Virus record (IMG/VR): IMGVR_UViG_3300025834_000005
Source of the DNA: a virus
DNA length: 64,000 nt
Strand: one strand, 5' to 3'
This document shows positions 7,679-37,177 of the stretch, piece by piece. The notes beneath the pieces are model-generated. The model ran no database searches, was not told the DNA's origin, and saw only the letters and a list, made by a program, of their open reading frames with translations. The number at the start of each line of letters is the position of its first letter. Position 1 is the first letter of the stretch. A program made the translations under genes and the position numbers.

Positions 7679-10297
7679 ATGGCTATTGAATTAAATGATA
7701 ATATTAAAATATTAGCACCTAAACCCGATAGTTCACGATATTGGAATCTTGCCAACACGCCATATACTGATACGGTACAAGTATTGTCAGAAATACCTAT
7801 AGGATTACGATTTATCGGAATGCTTGTGAATGTTAATGGTACTGAATACTGGTTTAGAGACGGTATTAATCTCGAATTATATAATAAACCTTTAACTGGT
7901 CTGGATATGGTAGCGGCACTTCAAGCACTGCCATTAGCCGATAAATTAACAGCAAATGATATAACATATAATGCTGTATTATTGAAGACATTTCTGGATA
8001 ATTTAACAGGATCTAATCTTGGTGTACTTGAGATAGAAACGACGTATAATGGTAATTTTTTTAATGGAATGCGTGTAGCATTTTATGATAATACTGATAC
8101 GTTGATAAAAATTGTCGAAACTTTAACAGGATCTACACTGACGACGCTTCCCATTGGCGTTTACACTGCTGTATTACTGCCTCCTACAGGATATATTACA
8201 GATATGGTTACGATCACTGATGCTAATAATTCTGACAACGCTTCCACCGTAACAACAATTAGCGGAATAACTATTAATAGTAGCATTAAATGCACTATTA
8301 ATATTGTATTAGTTCCCGAAGCAATCCCTGTGCTCAATTATATGTTAATTAATAATGGCGATTTATTTTCATCAATTTCATTATTATCAATAACACCAAA
8401 TTCAGTTGGTGTTATTGATCAGTATATGCTTTCAGAGAGTTCAACATTTGCTGGCGCATTGTGGATTAACTATACAGGGGTTATAAATTATAATAAGGAC
8501 TATATTTCAGATATAACAGTAGTCCTTTATTTGAAATTAAGGAATTCTAAGGGCGTTAGTAATAGTGCAAGTGATAGTATAACCATGACAAATGGCTTCC
8601 ATCGTAGCGACGTGAGTGATACGTATAACTTATTAGGTGACGCTATTAACGCTGTTATTGCCGATTATAATGGTAATTTAACTCAAGATGTGATGATTAC
8701 TTGCGTTGGTATGACTATAAATACCAGAAATACTGGATCATATTTAATAGACGTAAATGCTCTAAATAAAAATTCAGATTATGTATTGATTATTGACGGG
8801 ACAAATAGACTAACACTGGACTGCGCAAGTCTTGGGGGAATACGAATAAAAGATAGTAAAAATATTCTAATTAATGATATAAATTTTATTAATGTGGGTT
8901 CGCAATTAACTGAAGCAGCACCTGAAGAACTTGCAGCTGTTTTTTCACAAGGAACTCCATTGAAACCCTGCAATAATATTGTTATAAAATCTTGCCATGT
9001 TGATTGTAGAGAGACTTACAACGGAATTACAAAGGACGGCAGTTATGGTTTTATCGCTAAAAATACTACGAATTTTAGCACTTTTGAAAATAATATCATA
9101 AATGCGGCTGCTGTGTTGATAAAATGTTCATTTGTTAATAATCTCAATGTCATAAAAAATATTTTTAGAGGTACACAAGTTATCGGTATTGTTAGCCAGC
9201 CTACATTAGTATTAAATACTAACGGTAAACGTGTATATATTTCTGATAATGACTTCAATGGCGATACATTTGACACTGGACTCATTATTGATGCCAGATA
9301 TGTGACAATAATTAGAAATAAATTCCACAGCCTCAATGGTGAATCAATTAGAATGATCAACACAACAAGAGGCGTTAGTCTTGATATAAGCTCCAATTCA
9401 TTTTATAACAACTTGTTAGTAGCTCCATATCCTTGGGTAAAATATACTATAATCCTTAATAATTATTTTGAAACAGTGAGATTTGTATCAAACACTTGTG
9501 AAATGAGAGGTGTAAATTATAGTGGAACTGGTGAATCTTTGATTAGAGGATATAATTGTACGATTAATAAATTAATATTTTCAAACAACATTATTTATAT
9601 TAATTGTCCAGATCCACGATACGCTAATAATACAAGCGGTGGTAATATATTGAATTTTAGTGATATTGTTACATTGGAGTCAAATAATAATATCTATTTA
9701 GACATATCTGCTGACAACAACACTTTAAATACGCCCATTATAACAACAGACACAACATCGACAACAGTGTTGAGATTCATGAACAAGATAAGTGATCTTA
9801 ATGCATTAGGCTATGAAATAGATTCAAGGGTTATACCAATTAATTCCGATTTATTTGTGAGTAAATTGGGTTATGATTACAAGCTAACAATCAATGGAAG
9901 CGTACTTGCCGTAAAATTGTCAGGCGATGTTAATGTTATTGATAATAATTATAAATTAACTGGCTCAACTGTTAATTCTGGCGCATTTGGTTATAATTAT
10001 AACGCTATTTCTGAGACGGATTTATCGACGGATTATATTGCCACTGATCTTGATACCGATACTGTTTATACGATAAATGACGTTATAAACGTATTGTCAA
10101 CACAAGAGCTTTTGTTTGAAACACTTAACAAGAATAGAACCGCTGTGCTTTCATGGAAAATAATAGATAGTTCTAATCAGCATATTGTAAATTCGTTATT
10201 AGGATTATCTGGGTTTGTATCTGTATTTTCAAATTTAAACCCTGATGGCACTTATTTATCAGATGCTTCATATAATATTGAAATAAATTTAATTTAA
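7679..10297 (+). CDS. Tail fibre or tailspike with predicted right-handed beta-helix domain (candidate depolymerase)
   Basis: 872 aa with the shared N-terminal anchor. Turns such as NILINDINFINVG, IVIKSCHVDC and VIKNIFRGTQV resemble parallel beta-helix repeats. Confidence 0.55.
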   Translation: MAIELNDNIKILAPKPDSSRYWNLANTPYTDTVQVLSEIPIGLRFIGMLVNVNGTEYWFRDGINLELYNKPLTGLDMVAALQALPLADKLTANDITYNAVLLKTFLDNLTGSNLGVLEIETTYNGNFFNGMRVAFYDNTDTLIKIVETLTGSTLTTLPIGVYTAVLLPPTGYITDMVTITDANNSDNASTVTTISGITINSSIKCTINIVLVPEAIPVLNYMLINNGDLFSSISLLSITPNSVGVIDQYMLSESSTFAGALWINYTGVINYNKDYISDITVVLYLKLRNSKGVSNSASDSITMTNGFHRSDVSDTYNLLGDAINAVIADYNGNLTQDVMITCVGMTINTRNTGSYLIDVNALNKNSDYVLIIDGTNRLTLDCASLGGIRIKDSKNILINDINFINVGSQLTEAAPEELAAVFSQGTPLKPCNNIVIKSCHVDCRETYNGITKDGSYGFIAKNTTNFSTFENNIINAAAVLIKCSFVNNLNVIKNIFRGTQVIGIVSQPTLVLNTNGKRVYISDNDFNGDTFDTGLIIDARYVTIIRNKFHSLNGESIRMINTTRGVSLDISSNSFYNNLLVAPYPWVKYTIILNNYFETVRFVSNTCEMRGVNYSGTGESLIRGYNCTINKLIFSNNIIYINCPDPRYANNTSGGNILNFSDIVTLESNNNIYLDISADNNTLNTPIITTDTTSTTVLRFMNKISDLNALGYEIDSRVIPINSDLFVSKLGYDYKLTINGSVLAVKLSGDVNVIDNNYKLTGSTVNSGAFGYNYNAISETDLSTDYIATDLDTDTVYTINDVINVLSTQELLFETLNKNRTAVLSWKIIDSSNQHIVNSLLGLSGFVSVFSNLNPDGTYLSDASYNIEINLI

Positions 10298-10306
10298 AAA
10301 TACGCT

Positions 10307-13084
10307 ATGACAATTTATAATAATAAAATATTAGTTAGCCAACGTAGGACTCAGTCAAAATTCATTATTGACAACTATTTTCCTGTTATTAATAGTGATG
10401 TTAATTTAATAAGCGAATCAATTGAGGCTGATAATAGCGTGTGGTCATTAAATGACGGTGTTACTCCCGTATCTATATCAGGGGTAACAGGAACAACATT
10501 AACCCCAAGAATTGCAGCACCTCTTATGCAATCGTTGCAAACCGTAAATCGTGTTGGCAATAATGTTTATACAAAATTTGTGTACCCTATATATGCTCCA
10601 ACAAGGGTATATTCAGACATTGTTGTTGATAAGGAAATTATTAGAATCGGCGAATCTGTTACAATCAGTGCTGTTGATTTTAACACTGTGAGTGGATCAA
10701 CTCCGAGTTATTTATTTAGAGTGTATGACAGTAATAGTAATGCTCTGGTAAAGATATTAACAAATAAAATTAATACCACAACTTTTTCAACATTAGGAGC
10801 TTATGATATTGTGTTGGAGATCACAACAAATGGATCGATAGTTAAACAAACTATTCGAAAGTTGCTGACTGTTACGCCCTCATTATCTAATATAGGGGAC
10901 GCTATAATATGTGAATTAGTTCCAGTTACTCAATTGGTTACTAAACAAGATTTTGGTGATAGTAATATTTCTGCTGGTTCGACTATTATTATAAGACTTC
11001 CAGTGTTACCACCCGAAGGTTCGATGTATAGATTATCATTGAATAATTTACAGGGGACTGCGTTAAACCCAATTGTGATTACATTCGATTCGAATACACA
11101 AATTGAGTTTAATTTTAATAGCTATTATGGATTTTTGATGTATAATTGTCAACATGTTATTTTTGATGGCAGAGGCTATAATAATTTAAAATATGGGATA
11201 CATATAACCAAATATGAGTCAACAGATATTGCTATAACTGGTTTTGGTGTAGGTTATTTATGTAGCGATATACAAATATTCGGTGTTGAAATATCAAAAG
11301 CAAGTTTTGCTGGCTTATTAGCAAAAACAGACCCCAACCCAAATGATCCTACAACATGGAGGGAAAATTATTCGTTTAACAATTTTTCATTGCATCATAA
11401 TTATTTCCATGACACCAGCTCAGAGGGCAATTATATTGGATATTTTAGTCCTGAAACACATACAGCCTTGAATAGTACTGGTGGAACTGTGACATATAGA
11501 GCACATGAAATGCGTTCGGCAAAAATTTATAGAAACACTTATTTAAGAACAGGCTGGGACAGTATTCAATTAAATAATGGAACAACAAATTGTGAAATAT
11601 GCTATAATGACATAACAGATGCCTCAATTTATCCTGAAGCTGATCAGGCAAGCTTTATGTCATTATCTATGGACGGATCTATACATCATAATACAATGGC
11701 AAACTCAGGAGGCGTTGGTATCCAATTTGGTTCATTTACTGGTATTGATATTTATAATAATACTATGACAGGCGTTGCCACAGGGTATAGCGGATTGTTA
11801 TTGCTTAGTTCCATAAATGTTCCTGAACAATATGGAACTAACGGTACTAATTCAGGCACAACTATAAATGTTTATAATAACACTATTTTATGCTCTGGTA
11901 CATTTTTTAATGCTCAGAATGTTGTACAATTTAGTAGCGTGTACGTAAAGAATAATTTATTAAAATATGAAGGTTCTTTATTTAGCGGACAAGATACAGT
12001 AACCGAAGCTAATTGGATTGCAAATGCTGAATCTAATTTTAGAATTACTGACGACGGCTCAGCATATCAATTAGCCAATATAGATGATAATGATTTACAG
12101 ATATCATCAAATTCAAATTTAATTGATACAGGTGTAAATTTTGGATCAAACGATGATATAAGAGGCTTTGAGAAATGGAATGTGCCTACAAAGCATATAG
12201 GTGCGTTTTCAGGTTATAGAAGACTGAGTCAATCCATTCTAACATTAACAAATTTTAATTTAAATAGTAGCGGCATAACGACCAGTAATAGACTTGTAAC
12301 AGTATCGTATGCATCAATAGGCTCTCCCACTCAGTATATGATAGGCGAAGACCCTTCATTAATTGGTTCGTCATGGATTGATATCACAGGTGGAACTATC
12401 ACCTACACGCTTACAGAACCAGACGGTTTAAAAACAGTGTATTTTAAATTGAAAAATGCTTCTGACGCTGTTAGTAGTATATTGAGTTATTCGATAAATC
12501 TAAATAGACAAAAGCGAATACTGGTTGACATAGGATCGTCAAATGCATCATATCAAACAGGCACAATGGGTAATCCTCAGACAACTGATAATGTTTGGAA
12601 TAATTTATATTCGGCTGCAAATGCAACACCTGTGGCAACAGGCAATACAGTATCGCCATTGGTTGACGTAAGCGGCGCAGCGACATCATTTTCAATGGTA
12701 GTTTCCACCTCTTTCAGTGATTGGGAGGCAAACGGTGGTGCTGATAATCCTTTGGCTATATATCCGTATACAGCATATAAGGATTCATTCATTGCTAATT
12801 TTGGCACTGTCGGCGAGCTTACGCTATTGAATTTAAACCCAGCTAATTTATATACTGTTAAATGTTTTGGGGCAAGAGGATTTACCAGTAATAGAACTAT
12901 TTACACTATTGACGGAGTATCACAGCCATTATTAACACAAAATAATATTAGTAGTGTTGTTACTTTTAGCGGAGTATCTCCAGATATTAATAATAACATT
13001 ATTATAAGAGTCGGAGGAACTGCTGGTTATCCTGATACAAATGGCTATATCTCAGTCTTAGACATATATGAGCAGATCGTATGA
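10307..13084 (+). CDS. Beta-helix (pectate-lyase-fold-like) tailspike or depolymerase candidate
   Basis: 925 aa. Contains HHNYFHDTSSEGNYIGY, IYRNTYLRTGWDSIQLNNG and IHHNTMANSGGVGIQFG repeats. Confidence 0.55.
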   Translation: MTIYNNKILVSQRRTQSKFIIDNYFPVINSDVNLISESIEADNSVWSLNDGVTPVSISGVTGTTLTPRIAAPLMQSLQTVNRVGNNVYTKFVYPIYAPTRVYSDIVVDKEIIRIGESVTISAVDFNTVSGSTPSYLFRVYDSNSNALVKILTNKINTTTFSTLGAYDIVLEITTNGSIVKQTIRKLLTVTPSLSNIGDAIICELVPVTQLVTKQDFGDSNISAGSTIIIRLPVLPPEGSMYRLSLNNLQGTALNPIVITFDSNTQIEFNFNSYYGFLMYNCQHVIFDGRGYNNLKYGIHITKYESTDIAITGFGVGYLCSDIQIFGVEISKASFAGLLAKTDPNPNDPTTWRENYSFNNFSLHHNYFHDTSSEGNYIGYFSPETHTALNSTGGTVTYRAHEMRSAKIYRNTYLRTGWDSIQLNNGTTNCEICYNDITDASIYPEADQASFMSLSMDGSIHHNTMANSGGVGIQFGSFTGIDIYNNTMTGVATGYSGLLLLSSINVPEQYGTNGTNSGTTINVYNNTILCSGTFFNAQNVVQFSSVYVKNNLLKYEGSLFSGQDTVTEANWIANAESNFRITDDGSAYQLANIDDNDLQISSNSNLIDTGVNFGSNDDIRGFEKWNVPTKHIGAFSGYRRLSQSILTLTNFNLNSSGITTSNRLVTVSYASIGSPTQYMIGEDPSLIGSSWIDITGGTITYTLTEPDGLKTVYFKLKNASDAVSSILSYSINLNRQKRILVDIGSSNASYQTGTMGNPQTTDNVWNNLYSAANATPVATGNTVSPLVDVSGAATSFSMVVSTSFSDWEANGGADNPLAIYPYTAYKDSFIANFGTVGELTLLNLNPANLYTVKCFGARGFTSNRTIYTIDGVSQPLLTQNNISSVVTFSGVSPDINNNIIIRVGGTAGYPDTNGYISVLDIYEQIV

Positions 13085-14639: not shown

Positions 14640-14804
14640 ATGAGCGAGTTAAAATGTGGCGACGTAGTCGAATTAAAATCTGGAAGTCCTAAAATGACAT
14701 TAGGTATATATGACGAGGATGAGGATAGTTGGTATTGCCAATGGTTTAGAGAATCCGATCTTAATGAGGGCGATTTTTATGCTGATCAACTTAAATTGGT
14801 TTAA
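14640..14804 (+). CDS. YodC/DUF2158-like small protein
   Basis: 54 aa, absent from the ORF track. MSELKCGDVVELKSGSPKMTLG..WYCQWF fits the GDxVxLKSGGPxMT..CxWF pattern of that family. Confidence 0.55.
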   Translation: MSELKCGDVVELKSGSPKMTLGIYDEDEDSWYCQWFRESDLNEGDFYADQLKLV

Positions 14805-14849
14805 AATAACGAATAATTAAACTTTTTTTAAAAAAATTACTATTTATAG

Positions 14850-14879
14850 TTGCAGGTTACAAAATAATGATTACTTTTG
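14850..14879 (+). promoter_or_regulatory. Strong Bacteroidota-type promoter of cassette A (TTGCAG-N19-TACTTTTG)
   Basis: tagTTGCAGgttacaaaataatgatTACTTTTGtaccg. The same architecture occurs at cassettes B, C and D. Confidence 0.55.
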
Positions 14880-14907
14880 TACCGAAATAAAAAAATAATT
14901 AGAAACA

Positions 14908-14979
14908 ATGAGAACAATTTTTAACATAGTACCGCAACATCAACCACAACAATTGAAATCTTTTCAATCGAATGGCTGA
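14908..14979 (+). CDS. Leader mini-ORF A (23 aa, MRTIFNIVPQHQPQQLKSFQSNG)
   Basis: The run CCG CAA CAT CAA CCA CAA CAA (PQHQPQQ) uses only Pro/His/Gln, which are exactly the tRNA identities encoded downstream. A terminator follows. Confidence 0.5.
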   Translation: MRTIFNIVPQHQPQQLKSFQSNG

Positions 14980-15007
14980 ACTATGTAAAAAATAAGCATA
15001 CATAATG

Positions 15008-15042
15008 ATCCCCTTTAATTGAAAGATTAAAGGGGATTTTTT
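15008..15042 (+). terminator. Intrinsic terminator of cassette A
   Basis: cccctttaat-tgaaag-attaaagggg (10 bp stem) followed by a T-run. It ends 3 nt before the first tRNA-like gene. Confidence 0.7.
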
Positions 15043-15044
15043 AT

Positions 15045-15131
15045 ATAGGCGTAGACCTGTAGTTGGTAGCAGTCCTGATTTGGGATCAGGCGTAGTAAAA
15101 TACCTCGTGAGTTCGAGCCTCACCGCTTATA
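15045..15131 (+). tRNA. Atypical tRNA(UGG), 87 nt with 16-nt variable region
   Basis: Acceptor ATAGGCG/CGCTTAT. Anticodon arm CCTGA-TTTGGGA-TCAGG. T arm GTGAG-TTCGAGC-CTCAC. The D arm is irregular. Confidence 0.5.
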
Positions 15132-15142
15132 CAAATTTTTAA

Positions 15143-15667
15143 ATGATTTATATGGAAAAAATTAATAATATTATGATTGTCGCTGTTAATAAAGGATATT
15201 ACGCCAATGAAAATGGTGATATATTCTCAGTGAAGAAAAAGTTAATATTAGGAAAGTCAAAAAATGGTTATCTTCGTTTTTCGATTAGATGCAATGGATA
15301 TAGAGAGGTTGTCTTCGTTCACAAATTTGTAGCATATTTAAAGTATGGCGACAAGATGTTTGAAGATAATATTGAGGTTAGGCATTTTAATGGCGATTCA
15401 TCAGATAATTCATTTGAAAATATATTACTTGGGACACACTCAGATAATATGCAAGATATTTCAAAAATAGTGCGGATAACAAAAGCCTTAATAGCATCAA
15501 AAAAAGTAAGGGCTTTTGATGACGACACTGTTAATGAAATATTAAATGATAGAAAATTTGGAATGACATATAAAGACCTTTGCGCTAAATATGATACGAG
15601 TAAGTCAACGTTGAGTTACTTTTTCAATCATGCATATTATAGTGGTCTCAGAGAATTGAAAGAGTGA
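15143..15667 (+). CDS. HNH (HNH_3/NUMOD4-type) homing endonuclease
   Basis: VHKFVAYLKYG..VRHFNGDSSDNSFENILLGTHSDN motif. The gene is inserted between tRNA(UGG) copies. Confidence 0.7.
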   Translation: MIYMEKINNIMIVAVNKGYYANENGDIFSVKKKLILGKSKNGYLRFSIRCNGYREVVFVHKFVAYLKYGDKMFEDNIEVRHFNGDSSDNSFENILLGTHSDNMQDISKIVRITKALIASKKVRAFDDDTVNEILNDRKFGMTYKDLCAKYDTSKSTLSYFFNHAYYSGLRELKE

Positions 15668-15673
15668 ATATAC

Positions 15674-15747
15674 AGGGTAGTTATGCAGAGACTATACAAC
15701 GCAAGTTTGGAACTTGCGGTTCGTGGGTTTGAATCCCACCTACCCTA
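15674..15747 (+). tRNA. tRNA-Pro(UGG), weak D stem
   Basis: Acceptor AGGGTAG/CTACCCT. Anticodon arm GCAAG-TTTGGAA-CTTGC. T arm GTGGG-TTTGAAT-CCCAC. Confidence 0.6.
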
Positions 15748-15768
15748 CAAATTATTAGTTTGTAATAT

Positions 15769-15841
15769 AGAGTAGTATATCAATTGGCAGATTACCGCAT
15801 TTGGGATGCGGAGGTTCTGGGTTCGAGTCCCAGTTACTCTA
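15769..15841 (+). tRNA. tRNA-Pro(UGG)
   Basis: Acceptor AGAGTAG/TTACTCT. Anticodon arm CCGCA-TTTGGGA-TGCGG. T arm CTGGG-TTCGAGT-CCCAG. Confidence 0.8.
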
Positions 15842-15872
15842 CTGATTATCAATTAGTTGATAGTTATTAAAT

Positions 15873-15947
15873 GGTGTTTGTAGCTTAAATGGATAAAGCG
15901 CATGCCTGTGAAGCATGTACATGCGAGATCGTACCTCGTCTAACACC
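15873..15947 (+). tRNA. tRNA-His(GUG)
   Basis: G-1 opposite C73. Anticodon arm CATGC-CTGTGAA-GCATG. The T loop is the variant ATCGTAC. Confidence 0.8.
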
Positions 15948-15967
15948 CTAATTTTAAATTAAAGATC

Positions 15968-16732
15968 ATGTATTACGTTGTACAGAAGAATGTTTTTAGA
16001 GAAGAAAATTACGATAATTTGATTATCGCTTTGAATCGGTTAGAGTTGCCTTATGAAATCGTTGATGTGCTACCATTCGTAGACACCTTCGAATTCAAGA
16101 CAACCAGAAAGGATGTATTTCCTTTTGGTGCTGTGAAAATGTCGAGAATTGCCAAAGAATTGGACTGGAATCCAGGCTCTCAATTGTGTGACAATCATGA
16201 TTATAACGTATATAGTAAGTATTATAAGGAGAACTTACTTAATTACGATTCAAAGATCATTAAATTCGGTGATGACTTCTTTCAAACAGAAAGGTTCTTT
16301 GCAAGACCAACATTAGATACGAAAGTGTTTACAGGTAAAGTATTCGACATGGGCGAGTGGATTGAATTCAGAGATAATTCCTTTGCCAATGGACATAGCA
16401 CTTTACTGAACGCCGATACAGAAATTCAGATTTCTTCTGTTAAGAACATTCAGAACGAAATAAGATTCTGGATTGTGAAGGGCGAAATCGCCACAGCAAG
16501 TCAGTATTCTCTGGGTGGAAGATTCTGTGTGAATGCAAACGTTGATCAATCGGCATATGACTTTGTAAACAGAATGATAAAGATATTCGAATTAAACGAC
16601 ACCTTTATCATGGATGCATGCCTTGTTAATGGCGAATACAAAATAGTTGAATGCGGTTGCACTAATAGTGCTGGCTTCTACAGAGCAGACATGCAAAAAC
16701 TGCTTATGAAATTGGAAGACGCTTTCAATTAA
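15968..16732 (+). CDS. ATP-grasp fold protein (R2K-clade/DUF4343-like)
   Basis: FFARPTLDTKVFTGKVF, EIRFWIVKGEIATASQY and FIMDACLVNGEYKIVECGCTNSAGFY match the phage R2K ATP-grasp pattern. Confidence 0.55.
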   Translation: MYYVVQKNVFREENYDNLIIALNRLELPYEIVDVLPFVDTFEFKTTRKDVFPFGAVKMSRIAKELDWNPGSQLCDNHDYNVYSKYYKENLLNYDSKIIKFGDDFFQTERFFARPTLDTKVFTGKVFDMGEWIEFRDNSFANGHSTLLNADTEIQISSVKNIQNEIRFWIVKGEIATASQYSLGGRFCVNANVDQSAYDFVNRMIKIFELNDTFIMDACLVNGEYKIVECGCTNSAGFYRADMQKLLMKLEDAFN

Positions 16733-16739
16733 TATAAAT

Positions 16740-16812
16740 TGTTTCGTGGTGTAATTGGTAACACGTCTGACTCTGAATCAGTTGAGTGCAGGTTCGATCC
16801 CTGCCGAAACAA
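16740..16812 (+). tRNA. tRNA-Gln(CUG)
   Basis: Acceptor TGTTTCG/CGAAACA. Anticodon loop CTCTGAA. T arm GCAGG-TTCGATC-CCTGC. Confidence 0.8.
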
Positions 16813-16822
16813 CTAAACTATA

Positions 16823-16896
16823 TTGCCCTGTTATGTAATGGTTAGCATACGACACTTTGAATGTCGGAGTCATGGTTCGAGTCCATGCAGGGCAAC
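16823..16896 (+). tRNA. tRNA-Gln(UUG)
   Basis: Acceptor TTGCCCT/AGGGCAA. Anticodon arm CGACA-CTTTGAA-TGTCG. T arm CATGG-TTCGAGT-CCATG. Confidence 0.85.
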
Positions 16897-16904
16897 ATTT
16901 TCAC

Positions 16905-16935
16905 TTGCATGTTATTTAAAAAATAACTACTTTTG
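16905..16935 (+). promoter_or_regulatory. Bacteroidota-type promoter
   Basis: cacTTGCATgttatttaaaaaataacTACTTTTGcat, 13 nt before ATG 16949. Confidence 0.5.
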
Positions 16936-16948
16936 CATAAAAAATTTT

Positions 16949-17152
16949 ATGAACTCAGAAAAATTATTGCTACAGATTAAGAAAGATTTAACACCGTTAG
17001 ATATTGGGAAGATAATTGTATTACCATGCAAGGGAGACCCAAGGGTACTACAAAATGAAGTATCGTTTGCAATAATGGGAGAGAATGAAGGCATTATTCA
17101 ATATATTGTAACTGTTGAGAAACTTAATAACAAAACCAATGGGAAACTATAA
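16949..17152 (+). CDS. Hypothetical small protein
   Basis: 67 aa from an internal ATG. The longer track ORF (16823) would run through tRNA-Gln. Confidence 0.5.
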   Translation: MNSEKLLLQIKKDLTPLDIGKIIVLPCKGDPRVLQNEVSFAIMGENEGIIQYIVTVEKLNNKTNGKL

Positions 17153-17540
17153 CCTATTCCTTGATGATTTTAGATCGCCAGAGGACGCTTTCTATTACAT
17201 GCGCAATAGCGATTATTTGAAACTTGAATGGGTAATCGTTCGAAGTTATAATGAGTTTGTGAGCTATATCGAGAAGAATGGTATGCCAGCTACGATTAGC
17301 TTCGACCATGATCTTGCCGATATTCATTATGAACAACAAACAAATATCAACTATGATAATGCTGACGATGATGAGAAGACTGGATATCATTGCGCTAAAT
17401 GGCTTATCGATTACACAATGGATAACGATGTTGAATTACCAGCATATATGTTGATACATTCAATGAATACAGTTGGTAGCCGAAACATTAAATCATTGTT
17501 TGAAAACTACAAGCATTTTGTAAAAAAAGGAGCATCATAA
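17139..17540 (+). CDS. cREC-like (cyclic-phosphate-processing receiver-like) domain protein
   Basis: NLFLDDFR..ISFDHDLA..TGYHCAKWL..IHSMNTVG resembles the cREC family linked to RNA-repair systems. ATG 17139 is preferred over TTG 17115. Confidence 0.45.
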   Translation: MGNYNLFLDDFRSPEDAFYYMRNSDYLKLEWVIVRSYNEFVSYIEKNGMPATISFDHDLADIHYEQQTNINYDNADDDEKTGYHCAKWLIDYTMDNDVELPAYMLIHSMNTVGSRNIKSLFENYKHFVKKGAS

Positions 17541-17556
17541 TGATACTCCTTTTTTG
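17525..17556 (+). terminator. Intrinsic terminator
   Basis: aaggag-catcataatgata-ctcctt followed by TTTT. Confidence 0.6.
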
Positions 17557-17588
17557 TTTATATTAGTATTTATTATAAATTTGATATT

Positions 17589-18587
17589 ATGAGTGATAAG
17601 TATAGCAAAAATAGGCTCTTCGAAATGATGGGCAGGGTGGATAATAATTTCAATGAGGAGTCAACAGCCTCTGATGGTGGCTATCATAGTAAGCATGTAA
17701 ATAATCCACAATCAGCTGGAAAAGAAATACAGAATTGGCTAAATGGCATAGGTCAGGAAAAAACAACGCAAATATATTATAGAATGGCTGACGAATTTAG
17801 AGACATAGTAATTGATGACTCTGATCTATCATATATGCGTTCAGAATCGCCTGATGATTTGGATTATGGCTTTGTTGAAGCATTGGCATGTTATAAGCAT
17901 GACTATAATGAGGATAGTCCTTATATGTACTTCGTTAATTTCTTACTAAGCACTAAATATAGATTCAATCCAAAAACCACATTTAGTTATCGTGCAGAAG
18001 ACTTGGATGAGAAAGGTAAAGCTATTTATAATACTCTTTCAAATGGTGATGACCATTATGGTGAATTGTATGAAGATTTGCTTTATGATCAGGCTGAACA
18101 AGATGATAACAATAATGACCGCAACGGTTATGATGAAAGCGTTAAAAAAAGACTCTCAACTATTTTTGAAATTAAAAACATCGAAGCTCAGAGAAATGGT
18201 AAGAAGAAAGTTTTAAACGAAACTAAGCTTTTTGGCATGATTAATAAACTTGAAAGTAAACGCAAGCTCAATGAATGGGGTGATGAAAATGACTCTGATT
18301 ACGAGAATGATTCAAGTAATTATAGTGAACAAGGTGATTATGATGATCACGAGGGCAGTAGCAGCAATTATGGCGCAAATGACCGTGAAGCCGACAATAC
18401 AGATCATATGGATGAGGAATTATCAACAGAAGACCCTCATTTTCAAATAGGGTCTTTGAGACAGAAACTTAACTCTCATTTAGATCAGGTTCAAAGACTG
18501 TTCACTTATCTGGATGAAAAACCTTCAATAGAAGCTGTTAAGGGGTTTGTAGGAAGCGTTCTAAATGGTTGGGAAAAAGAAAAATAA
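17589..18587 (+). CDS. Highly acidic protein with N-terminal RLFEMMGRV motif
   Basis: 332 aa with Asp/Glu/Asn-rich tracts. N-terminus KNRLFEMMGRVDNNFNE. The motif ttagtatttattataaat lies upstream. Confidence 0.65.
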   Translation: MSDKYSKNRLFEMMGRVDNNFNEESTASDGGYHSKHVNNPQSAGKEIQNWLNGIGQEKTTQIYYRMADEFRDIVIDDSDLSYMRSESPDDLDYGFVEALACYKHDYNEDSPYMYFVNFLLSTKYRFNPKTTFSYRAEDLDEKGKAIYNTLSNGDDHYGELYEDLLYDQAEQDDNNNDRNGYDESVKKRLSTIFEIKNIEAQRNGKKKVLNETKLFGMINKLESKRKLNEWGDENDSDYENDSSNYSEQGDYDDHEGSSSNYGANDREADNTDHMDEELSTEDPHFQIGSLRQKLNSHLDQVQRLFTYLDEKPSIEAVKGFVGSVLNGWEKEK

Positions 18588-18626
18588 AAATATTTTAAAC
18601 TTTTTTGAATTATTTACTATTTATAT

Positions 18627-18656
18627 TTGCAGGTAATAAAAAAAGCATTACCTTTG
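18627..18656 (+). promoter_or_regulatory. Promoter of cassette B (TTGCAG-N-TACCTTTG)
   Basis: tatatTTGCAGgtaataaaaaaagcatTACCTTTGtaccg. Confidence 0.5.
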
Positions 18657-18709
18657 TACCGAAATTAATATTTACTTCCTTTAGGGAATCAAAAAAAAGA
18701 ATAGAAACG

Positions 18710-18844
18710 ATGAGAAATTTACTTAACATGGCACATTACATAGTCAATTCTAATGGGAATCAAAAGAACATGGAATTATTGGCAGTGGAACAGGTCAACC
18801 TCCTATTATGGGCGGATGAGGATACATTGTGCAATGCTGGTTAA
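18710..18844 (+). CDS. Leader mini-ORF B (44 aa)
   Basis: MRNLLNMAHYIVNSNGNQKNMELLAVEQVNLLLWADEDTLCNAG. The block ELLAVEQVNLLLWADED uses the Glu/Leu/Ala/Val/Trp/Asp codons served by the array that follows. Confidence 0.5.
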   Translation: MRNLLNMAHYIVNSNGNQKNMELLAVEQVNLLLWADEDTLCNAG

Positions 18845-18871
18845 GTAGAGTTTAATAATAATATTAAATAA

Positions 18872-18902
18872 AACCTCCAGCATACGTGTTGGAGGTTTTT
18901 TG
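18872..18902 (+). terminator. Intrinsic terminator of cassette B
   Basis: aacctcca-gcatacgtgt-tggaggtt followed by TTTT. Confidence 0.7.
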
Positions 18903-18915
18903 TTTATATGCGTTT

Positions 18916-18932
18916 TTTGACATGTTGGAATT
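18916..18932 (+). promoter_or_regulatory. Conserved 17-nt motif TTTGACATGTTGGAATT before the first tRNA of array B
   Basis: The identical 17-mer recurs at 35854..35870 before array D. It contains TTGACA. Confidence 0.4.
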
Positions 18933-35518: not shown

Positions 35519-35622
35519 TGCCGTGATCAACAAATGAAGCGACGAGATTTTATTTTAACACTTCTGAAACTTTTATGAAAATCACACTATTTATAAGTCT
35601 AAAAGCATTAATAAAAACGAAA

Positions 35623-35769
35623 ATGAAAAAGAACATATCATCATCAGTAACCATATCGGGAATAACAACGAGATCATCTCGCAGTTGTAATGGTATGTCT
35701 ATGTTCAATAGAATTTTTACAGGCATTAATACAGGCATACAAAAAATAGATTGGGTTCTCTTAATGTGA
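35623..35769 (+). CDS. Leader mini-ORF D (48 aa from ATG 35623; the frame is open from 35575)
   Basis: MKKNISSSVTISGITTRSSRSCNGMSMFNRIFTGINTGIQKIDWVLLM. A 36-codon block uses only N,I,S,T,G,R,C,M,F plus one V, the identities of the tRNAs downstream. A 14-codon uORF at 35534..35578 precedes it. Confidence 0.5.
   Translation: MKKNISSSVTISGITTRSSRSCNGMSMFNRIFTGINTGIQKIDWVLLM
35747..35757 (+). promoter_or_regulatory. Candidate antiterminator segment of cassette D
   Basis: TAGATTGGGTT matches 10 of 11 nt of the terminator 3' arm TAGATCGGGTT. It can pair with the 5' arm AACCCGATCTA and lies 10 nt upstream of the mini-ORF stop. Confidence 0.5.
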
Positions 35770-35828: not shown

Positions 35829-35853
35829 TTGATAGCAGTAAGGCTATCGTTTC

Positions 35854-35870
35854 TTTGACATGTTGGAATT
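35854..35870 (+). promoter_or_regulatory. Conserved 17-nt motif TTTGACATGTTGGAATT before the first tRNA of array D
   Basis: Identical to 18916..18932. Lies 8 nt before the tRNA at 35878. Confidence 0.4.
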
Positions 35871-37089: not shown

Positions 37090-37164
37090 TGCGGAATGGA
37101 CTGGAGGTGGCTTCCAGCATGGTCTCATAAGCCAATCACACAGGTTCGAATCCTGTTTCCGCAT
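37090..37164 (+). tRNA. tRNA(CAU), Met or Ile2 undetermined
   Basis: Acceptor TGCGGAA/TTCCGCA. Anticodon loop CTCATAA. T arm ACAGG-TTCGAAT-CCTGT. 4-nt acceptor-D connector. Confidence 0.65.
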
Positions 37165-37177
37165 CTAAATTAAATAA

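Follow-up and report, generated by a model that had tools for sequence, protein, structure and literature searches.

A candidate leader-peptide attenuator ahead of the tRNA-Pro/His/Gln operon in virus record IMGVR_UViG_3300025834_000005

Transcription attenuators read by a translating ribosome are best known from the amino-acid leaders trpL, hisL, leuL, pheL, thrL and ilvL of Proteobacteria. In these a short open reading frame (ORF) with regulatory codons stands before an intrinsic terminator, and mutually exclusive 1:2, 2:3 and 3:4 pairings are read by ribosome position. Two of them, thrL and ilvL, are precedents for leaders that mix the codons of several amino acids. Here we analyse an element of the same layout, which we call cassette A, in a stretch of 64,000 nucleotides (nt) from the virus record IMGVR_UViG_3300025834_000005 (hereafter the window). 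It consists of a promoter, a mini-ORF (14908-14979) and a terminator (15007-15038), followed by an operon of transfer RNA (tRNA) genes. We consider it probable that cassette A is a ribosome-mediated leader-peptide transcription attenuator which senses the tRNAs that it controls, and mutually exclusive pairings like those of the classic leaders are proposed for it below. The targets of the classic leaders are biosynthesis or transport genes, whereas those of the cassette are tRNA genes and the sensed molecule would be the product itself. Moreover, unlike the classic leaders, the cassette is phage-encoded, carries Bacteroidota-type signals (TTG/TAnnTTTG, no Shine-Dalgarno sequence) and has an extra helix, P1, between codons 4-8 and the stop region, and members of the family of leaders to which it belongs mix codons for up to ~9 amino acids. 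In the usual view, tRNA genes are controlled at the promoter, through growth-rate and stringent control, or are not regulated.

Several other systems share part of this logic. In Escherichia coli, the cognate-codon-rich pheM leader peptide and the pheST attenuator control phenylalanyl-tRNA synthetase. As in the phage cassettes a component of translation is under leader control, but the target is a synthetase, a single amino acid is read and the system is cellular. At mgtL and mgtP, consecutive Pro codons sense the supply of Pro-tRNA(Pro) and switch alternative stem-loops; unlike in cassette A, the output is a Mg2+ transporter and virulence genes, with no link to tRNA genes. For the Salmonella mgtA and mgtCBR leaders, two leader ORFs are described, the translation of which is expected to control stem-loop formation (PMC3641672). 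T-box riboswitches are akin to cassette A in that tRNA status controls the antitermination of translation-related genes. However, a T-box lacks a leader ORF, which cassette A has, and itself recognises uncharged tRNA by means of its specifier codon and T-box sequence. We rejected a T-box identity for cassette A, there being no Rfam T-box match to it at the gathering threshold or at E<=10. Within Bacteroidota, the Bacteroid-trp RNA motif of Rfam is a candidate leader-peptide attenuator upstream of tryptophan biosynthesis genes, which makes leader-peptide attenuation plausible in this group. Neither Bacteroid-trp nor the curated leader families (His, Thr, Leu, Trp) gave a match to cassette A reaching the gathering score, and over the whole window Rfam returned tRNAs only at the gathering threshold. 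A match to PyrG_leader, on the P1 3′ strand, the spacer and the terminator, scored 31 bits against a gathering score of 65 (search of 14780-15150, E<=10) and was taken as a chance match; besides it, this search gave only the tRNA-Pro-like gene described below, also under its threshold, and noise.

The upstream part of the cassette, on which the argument starts, holds the following features.

14837..14854, + strand: conserved upstream box TTACTATTTATAGTTGCA, the 3′ end of which holds the -33 TTG (14850-52)
14850..14879, + strand: Bacteroidota-type promoter, comprising TTG, a 19-nt spacer and TACTTTTG (-7 box 14872-79), recognised by pattern statistics
14908..14979, + strand: leader mini-ORF, with homologous ORFs in relatives L055, L062, L033/34, L053/63, L040, L035/36 and L180
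14932..14952, + strand: regulatory codon run, recognised by composition and run statistics, with a Q>P change in L055 that stays in the set

Mini-ORF A comprises 23 codons and a UGA stop and encodes MRTIFNIVPQHQPQQLKSFQSNG (ORF translation). A first-pass annotation, made from the DNA letters, had picked out seven consecutive Pro/Gln/His codons here, and these are indeed present as codons 9-15 (CCG CAA CAT CAA CCA CAA CAA, that is P Q H Q P Q Q). Runs of at least 7 residues drawn from {P,Q,H} occur twice in the six frames of the window, one of them in cassette A, where ~0.007 are expected and where 200 shuffles yield a mean of 0.005. Moreover, P, H and Q make up 8/22 residues of the leader against 1.5 expected (P=6e-5, binomial versus the window's own amino-acid usage). 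The next genes on the + strand are a tRNA-Pro-like gene, two tRNA-Pro genes, a tRNA-His gene and two tRNA-Gln genes, exactly the three amino acids of the run.

TTG/TAnnTTTG is the promoter consensus of Bacteroides and Flavobacterium, and the pattern TTGCA-N17-21-TANTTTTG has 8 matches, all on the + strand, against 0.27 expected. Exact 18-nt matches to the upstream box lie in the window only at cassettes A (14837), B (18614) and C (23842), and with up to three mismatches there are 7 matches against 1.8 expected. A scan of IMG/VR for the promoter box gave 32 single matches, mostly on unrelated contigs. The promoter of cassette A is conserved in L055, and transcription would start at ~14885, ahead of an A-rich 5′ untranslated region (UTR) with no Shine-Dalgarno sequence. 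Between 14880 and 16927 we found no TAnnTTTG box on the + strand, and thus the tRNAs appear to depend on transcription through the terminator; the next promoter-like site after the Gln tRNA genes begins at 16905.

Cassette A is one of four cassettes in the window with a common architecture of promoter, A-rich leader, mini-ORF, strong terminator and tRNA cluster. Each of the four leaders mirrors its own tRNA cluster, with binomial P values of 0.03, 1e-4 and 5e-5 for B, C and D beside the value given above for A.

18710-18844: cassette B leader, ...ELLAVEQVNLLLWADEDTLCNAG, followed by tRNAs Asp, Asp, Glu, Leu, Val, Leu x3, Ala and Gly
23914-23991: cassette C leader, 8 Lys in 25 residues, followed by three Lys tRNAs
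35623-35769: cassette D leader, 37/47 residues from {C,F,G,I,M,N,R,S,T}, followed by tRNAs Cys, Ile, Phe, Gly, Met, Asn, Ser, Thr and Arg

This correspondence extends well beyond the window. Relatives were taken as 91 loci from viral and metagenome contigs, anchored on the R2K gene embedded in the operon, together with two published huge-phage genomes. The survey of cassettes was blind to ORF composition, as ORFs were picked only by their position before a terminator. It returned 25 cassettes of mini-ORF, terminator and tRNAs among 63 unique tRNA clusters, and in 22 of the 25 the leader was enriched for its own tRNA set. Across 12 non-homologous leader types, 0/100,000 permutations of the leader-to-cluster assignment reached the observed match. 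Leaders of very different content illustrate the point.

L037: leader MKNSVNILLQQLQLLQL... (LLQQLQLLQL), before tRNAs Gln, Gln, Leu, Leu, Gln, Leu, Leu
L084: leader ...AQQQQQQ..., before tRNAs Gln x4
L041: leader ...YTYITLLGTTDKKWADEGKVY..., before tRNAs Trp, Asp, Lys, Lys, Arg, Gly, Thr, Gly, Leu, Tyr, Tyr
L092: leader MRRHSIHTISIISST..., before tRNAs Ser, Thr, Ile, His
LR756501 (a 735-kilobase (kb) phage): leader ...TPAPAVAFRRGTGTGTGTCVPAGCG... (TPAPAVAFRRGTGTGTGT), before tRNAs Arg, Thr, Val, Ala, Gly, Pro

Cassette A therefore fits a family of huge-phage tRNA-array leaders in which a composition-mirroring mini-ORF is followed by a terminator after its stop and then by the tRNAs. Among its own homologues (MKNLVNIVPQPQQHPQILEWGNYA; MKNLMNINPQQHPQTLEWGFYA; MRIICNIVAPQQHQPLISSD; MRTIFNIVPQHQPQPLKYLQSNG), the P/Q/H codons before Pro/His/Gln tRNAs are kept and the order of the residues is permuted. 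Start, frame and stop of the mini-ORF are kept in 8 distinct homologues, as are the P/Q/H content and the terminator that follows. The proposal of a leader-peptide attenuator thus gains strong comparative support from the conserved ORF, content and terminator, the permuted codon order and the matching content at other tRNA clusters. One homologue, L180, was added by a scan with a leader DNA pattern, the remaining matches of which were due to chance. GenBank phages gave nothing relevant in a near search with 20 kb and no match in a distant search with the cassette.

A close relative, L055, shares 88% nucleotide identity over cassette A. Identity is ~94% from the ATG to the terminator versus ~79% over the promoter and the 5′ UTR upstream of the ATG. 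In the ATG-to-terminator stretch only 8 substitutions separate the two phages, none of them in the terminator, and they include one synonymous CAA>CAG, one CAA>CCC (Q>P, within the set) and a compensatory pair in a hairpin. Because the substitutions are few and preserve both the set and the pairing, the leader-to-terminator element of cassette A is, as judged from this comparison, under constraint.

A BspA-type leucine-rich repeat (LRR) protein is encoded in the window, and the 735-kb genome belongs to the Mahaphage clade, the largest members of which are predicted to infect Bacteroidetes (PMC7162821). The promoter type, the LRR protein and the Mahaphage prediction agree, and the huge phages with these cassettes probably infect Bacteroidota.

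Downstream of the codon run, the RNA of cassette A offers the pairing partners listed here.

14917..14930, + strand: P1 helix 5′ strand (codons 4-8, AUUUUU.ACAUAGU), pairing with 14980-14993
14952..14968, + strand: local hairpin (segments 1 and 2), proposed anti-antiterminator, with a compensatory change in L055
14962..14975, + strand: antiterminator 5′ strand (segment 2), UUUCAAU.GAA.GG, within the last five sense codons of the leader, predicted by folding with a masked ribosome
14980..14993, + strand: P1 helix 3′ strand (ACUAUGU.AAAAAU), directly 3′ of the stop codon
15007..15038, + strand: intrinsic terminator hairpin (5′ arm 15007-20, loop GAAA, 3′ arm 15025-38, U-run 15037-15042), 100% identical in L055

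The terminator is strong: its 14-pair stem (15007-20 with 15025-38) is capped by a GAAA loop and runs into six U, and its energy is -18 to -19.1 kcal/mol (z-score (z) -5.0; 0/200 shuffles as good). The first-pass annotation had recognised it, although as a stem of 10-13 base pairs (bp) at 15010-15035, which understates its length. The pairing that had been suggested directly after the codon run also exists: AUUGAAA (14952-58) and UUUCAAU (14962-68) form a local hairpin of 7 bp around a UCU loop. At -2.6 kcal/mol it is weak on its own (z -1.7; 11/200 shuffles as good), and it is kept in L055 through the compensatory changes A14958>G and U14962>C. P1 is the more significant helix, its duplex having an energy of -13.3 kcal/mol (z -3.9, p ~0.003). 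The local hairpin and P1, both weak in free energy, would together supply the anti-antiterminator that is a feature of attenuators.

The alternative pairing of UUUUCAAU (14961-68) with AUUGAAAG (15018-25) was likewise found, at -5.5 kcal/mol. It had been thought to remove only the apical 2 bp and the loop of the terminator, which does not hold. Past two single mismatches the helix continues through GAA:UUU (14970-72/15014-16) and GG:CC (14974-75/15011-12), reaching 15011 and spanning 10/14 positions of the terminator 5′ arm. The antiterminator of cassette A is thus an imperfect helix of 12 pairs, and the helix first noticed is its apical part, which reaches into the terminator loop. When 14957-15027 is folded in isolation, the energy is -10.6 kcal/mol (z -2.0, 9/200 shuffles), and the L055 version gives -9.6 kcal/mol (z -2.0). 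By position it is homologous to the clear antiterminator GAUUGAUAGG:CCUGUUAAUC of L062, but it has two mismatches.

We also folded the leader with a masked ribosome. With codons 9-15 occupied, the predicted pairs are 14962-68/15018-24, 14970-72/15014-16 and 14974-75/15011-12, at -8.7 kcal/mol. At 37 C most of the pair probabilities are in the range 0.7-0.97, with ~0.45 for the end pair 14962:15024; at 15 C most approach 1, and this end pair reaches ~0.7. While the 3′ arm is not yet made, the mean pairing of the terminator 5′ arm rises from 0.36 with no ribosome to 0.55-0.58 when the A site is on codons 9-15, and returns to 0.36 when the ribosome has gone past them. This is the same profile as for L033 or L062, with a smaller range.

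Most cassettes of the family have a G-rich segment in the last leader codons that is complementary to the terminator 5′ arm, at -12 to -17.5 kcal/mol and z -3 to -6. It takes the form GAAUGGGG:CCCCAUUC in L033, L035, L040 and L053, AAGUCGGGU:ACCCGACU in L034 and AUAGAUUGGGUU:AACCCGAUCUA in cassette D (-17.5 kcal/mol, z -4.2). The G-rich segment would be covered by a ribosome that has come to the end of the ORF and left exposed by one that stalls further upstream. In most cassettes 22-31 nt separate the stop codon from the terminator (~15-45 nt across the family; 27 nt in cassette A). A helix of the P1 type, joining codons ~3-9 to the region of the stop codon, is significant in most cassettes, with sequences that differ by cassette type, and it explains the conserved N-terminus M-[KR]-N-x-x-N-I (AACAUA in RNA). 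RNAalifold found no consensus structure in the A-type alignment because this outer helix lies in different registers in different phages; per-sequence duplex statistics were used in place of consensus folding. One further complementarity, between the A-run (14981-14993) and the region of the U-tract (15035-15047; 13 bp, -11.9 kcal/mol), was set aside as irrelevant to termination because the U-tract would at that time still be in the RNA-DNA hybrid. It may bear on how read-through transcripts fold or are processed.

The sequence elements, their conservation and the match of leader codons to tRNAs across huge-phage cassettes are direct observations; that mini-ORF A is translated, and the direction in which it regulates, we infer. 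The following order of events is proposed. Host RNA polymerase would start at the Bacteroidota-type promoter (~14885), and a ribosome would load on the A-rich leader and translate the 23-codon ORF as the polymerase nears the terminator. With Pro-, His- and Gln-tRNAs plentiful, the ribosome would reach the last codons and the UGA in time to cover 14962-14975; the terminator 5′ arm would then be free, the hairpin would form and transcription would end before the tRNA genes. Were any of these aminoacyl-tRNAs scarce, the ribosome would stall within 14932-14952, which would keep P1 and segment 1 of the hairpin (14952-58) melted and leave 14962-14975 free. The freed segment would pair with 15011-15024 and delay the terminator hairpin, resulting in read-through into the tRNA-Pro/His/Gln genes. 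The tRNA products would in turn relieve the stall, a negative feedback on tRNA supply. If the leader were not translated at all, P1 and the 1:2 hairpin would sequester segment 2 and the terminator would form. As a model, this three-way pairing in cassette A is plausible.

Several points weigh against this interpretation, foremost the weakness of the antiterminator, at -8.7 to -10.6 kcal/mol against -18 to -19 kcal/mol for the terminator. Its duplex test gives p ~0.1-0.2 and the overall p is ~0.05 to 0.2, which is borderline against shuffles, and in L055 it is one terminal pair short. A strict test of the 3′ part of the leader against the terminator 5′ arm is negative for cassette A (-2.3 kcal/mol, z +0.8), in keeping with the earlier remark that its antiterminator is less convincing than that of cassette D. 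The folding with a masked ribosome is thermodynamic, not kinetic, and assumes a ribosome footprint, and the coupling of transcription to translation has been little studied in Bacteroidota. Within the survey, 35/63 tRNA clusters have no upstream terminator, and hence not all clusters use attenuator control. Lastly, the match at the level of isoacceptors (codon to anticodon) is weak (z=2.0), so that the sensor would work at the level of the amino acid and by itself cannot separate a shortage of tRNA from one of amino acid. Despite its weakness the antiterminator may nonetheless be adequate for function.

That weakness invites the best of the alternatives, namely that cassette A is a decayed attenuator, with an antiterminator that has eroded in this lineage, a terminator that is constitutive or leaky and a leader that no longer regulates. 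The test of leader against terminator 5′ arm is negative in both cassette A and L055 and positive in L062, L033, L053, L040 and L035; the G-rich GAAUGGGG of the relatives is reduced to GAAUGG in cassette A, and insertion of an HNH gene has already disrupted operon A. However, decay sits poorly with a leader-to-terminator stretch that is more conserved between the window and L055 than its flanks, with a run that has stayed P/Q/H-only through a two-nucleotide Q>P change, with a hairpin preserved by a compensatory change and with an imperfect antiterminator fold in both phages (-10.6 and -9.6 kcal/mol, z ~-2). Moreover, as no alternative promoter box was found, a fully efficient terminator would silence five conserved tRNA genes. 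We therefore regard decay as unlikely.

A second alternative accepts attenuation and changes what is sensed: the leader would respond to free Pro, His and Gln by way of tRNA charging and tie tRNA output to host nutrition. The trp and his attenuators sense aminoacyl-tRNA, hence both amino acid and tRNA, and the mechanism proposed here likewise reads aminoacyl-tRNA, which depends on both; the match at the amino-acid rather than the isoacceptor level also suits this explanation. Its regulatory logic would be futile, however, since extra tRNA does not relieve starvation for an amino acid. Furthermore, all ~25 cassettes control tRNA genes and none controls biosynthetic or transport genes, and the leaders track the gain and loss of individual tRNA species between phages. 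A starvation sensor is, in our view, improbable, more so than decay. That mini-ORF A is an unrelated small gene with its own terminator, the tRNAs being expressed independently and the match in composition being incidental, is barely credible: the terminator is strong and a second promoter could be provided by TTCTTTGACATGTTGGAA where it follows the terminators of cassettes B and D, but no permutation in 100,000 reached the observed match, leader composition follows tRNA content across phages, the peptide is not conserved as a protein would be, its residue order being permuted, RNA elements account for all parts of the ORF, and cassette A has neither TTCTTTGACATGTTGGAA nor a -7 box after its terminator.

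Regulation of the tRNA operon by a product-sensing attenuator thus remains our preferred explanation of cassette A. We also lean, a little less firmly, towards the general statement that huge phages of Bacteroidota control their tRNA arrays by leader peptides that sense the product, each array having before it a mini-ORF the codons of which list the tRNAs under its control, and a given subset of tRNAs being transcribed only when ribosomes stall for want of them. If true, tRNA genes would here be seen for the first time under ribosome-mediated attenuation, and the phages would have a built-in sensor of host translational capacity. With a leader attenuator before its tRNA genes, a phage would couple tRNA synthesis to tRNA supply in a direct feedback loop. 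The shortage sensed could stem from codon usage that does not match that of the host, or from the cleavage or depletion of tRNAs by host defences. The proposal makes it testable whether phage tRNAs respond to a lack of host tRNAs or to defences that target tRNA, and it suggests how huge phages with dozens of tRNA genes choose which of them to express. Moreover, the leaders are readable labels of operon content that could define tRNA operons and reveal recently lost tRNAs, and the cassettes, as compact parts responding to several aminoacyl-tRNAs, could be reused in engineering. Such elements are present but unannotated in published genomes, including that of the 735-kb phage LR756501. A full-text literature search, with subscription-only literature outside its scope, found no report of leader peptides controlling tRNA genes, and neither "attenuat" nor "leader" occurs in the text of the huge-phage paper (PMC7162821).

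The operon downstream of terminator A is made up as follows.

15051..15132, + strand: tRNA-Pro(UGG)-like gene, first of the genes that would be regulated, with a long variable arm (ARAGORN, relaxed threshold)
15143..15667, + strand: HNH endonuclease ORF (Pfam HNH_3, E=7e-9)
15674-15748, 15769-15842 and 15874-15948, + strand: tRNA genes Pro(tgg), Pro(tgg) and His(gtg)
15968..16732, + strand: R2K-clade ATP-grasp gene inside the tRNA operon (Pfam R2K_3, E=2e-15)
16740-16813 and 16824-16896, + strand: tRNA genes Gln(ctg) and Gln(ttg)

The tRNA-Pro-like gene starts 13 nt after the hairpin, scores 25.2 bits with the Rfam tRNA model (15051-15131) against a gathering score of 29 and has a poor acceptor stem; its L055 homologue is called as tRNA-Pro(tgg). 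The relatives L033 and L035 have tRNA-Pro genes of 96 nt. Between the tRNA-Pro-like gene and the next tRNA-Pro lies the HNH ORF, which is absent from L055, where the two genes adjoin. On this comparison it is a lineage-specific insertion in the operon and stands outside the proposed mechanism. About a third of the related loci checked have the R2K gene next to tRNA genes or between them. Brevundimonas phage Kabachok, considered as a cultivable model, has its R2K homologue outside a tRNA array. In L037 the R2K gene (10001-10821) is split by a frameshift, which could reflect faulty assembly, a pseudogene or a programmed shift. A gene with a cREC_REC ("cyclic-phosphate processing receiver") domain (17115-17540) adjoins the R2K gene in the window, and the neighbourhood of the two hints at a setting in which RNA is repaired or the translation apparatus modified.

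The window has 33.6% G+C and contains 34 tRNA genes called by ARAGORN and 3 found by Rfam only, all on the + strand. The tRNA clusters at 15674-20109 are sorted by first codon letter: the anticodons of cluster A all end in G and read CCN and CAN codons, and in cluster B, apart from Leu, they end in C and read GNN codons. The gene for tRNA-Ser(gct) (45256-45361) has its own TACTTTTG box 14 nt upstream and neither leader nor terminator; hence not all tRNAs of the window are under attenuator control.

The remaining cassettes show some peculiarities of their own. The C leader has three Tyr codons and the B leader a Trp codon, the matching tRNAs of which are missing from this phage; in L055 the C cluster has tRNA-Tyr x2 and the B cluster has tRNA-Trp. 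Relative to L055, the B leader also carries a 14-codon Asn-rich insertion. The conserved motif TTCTTTGACATGTTGGAA stands directly after the terminators of cassettes B and D (18913-18930, 35851-35868) and also after B-type cassettes of relatives (L034 ~14712, L035 ~13632); it is not present after the terminator of cassette A. Its role could be that of a second promoter or of a signal for processing. An extra upstream mini-ORF, MKRRDFILTLLKLL (35535-35579), lies between the promoter box of cassette D (35511-18) and the D leader ORF.

A tRNA with the anticodon CUA, of the amber-suppressor type (ARAGORN "Pyl"), is encoded at 25652-25726 and also in L055, L043 and L071, which suggests possible recoding of TAG in this phage group. 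Finally, three tRNA genes are aberrant (19082-19154, 24063-24134 and 37090-37165), their features being a 6-nt anticodon loop, a Lys(UUU)-like sequence with C33 and an unusual T-loop, and an unclear anticodon or short insertion.

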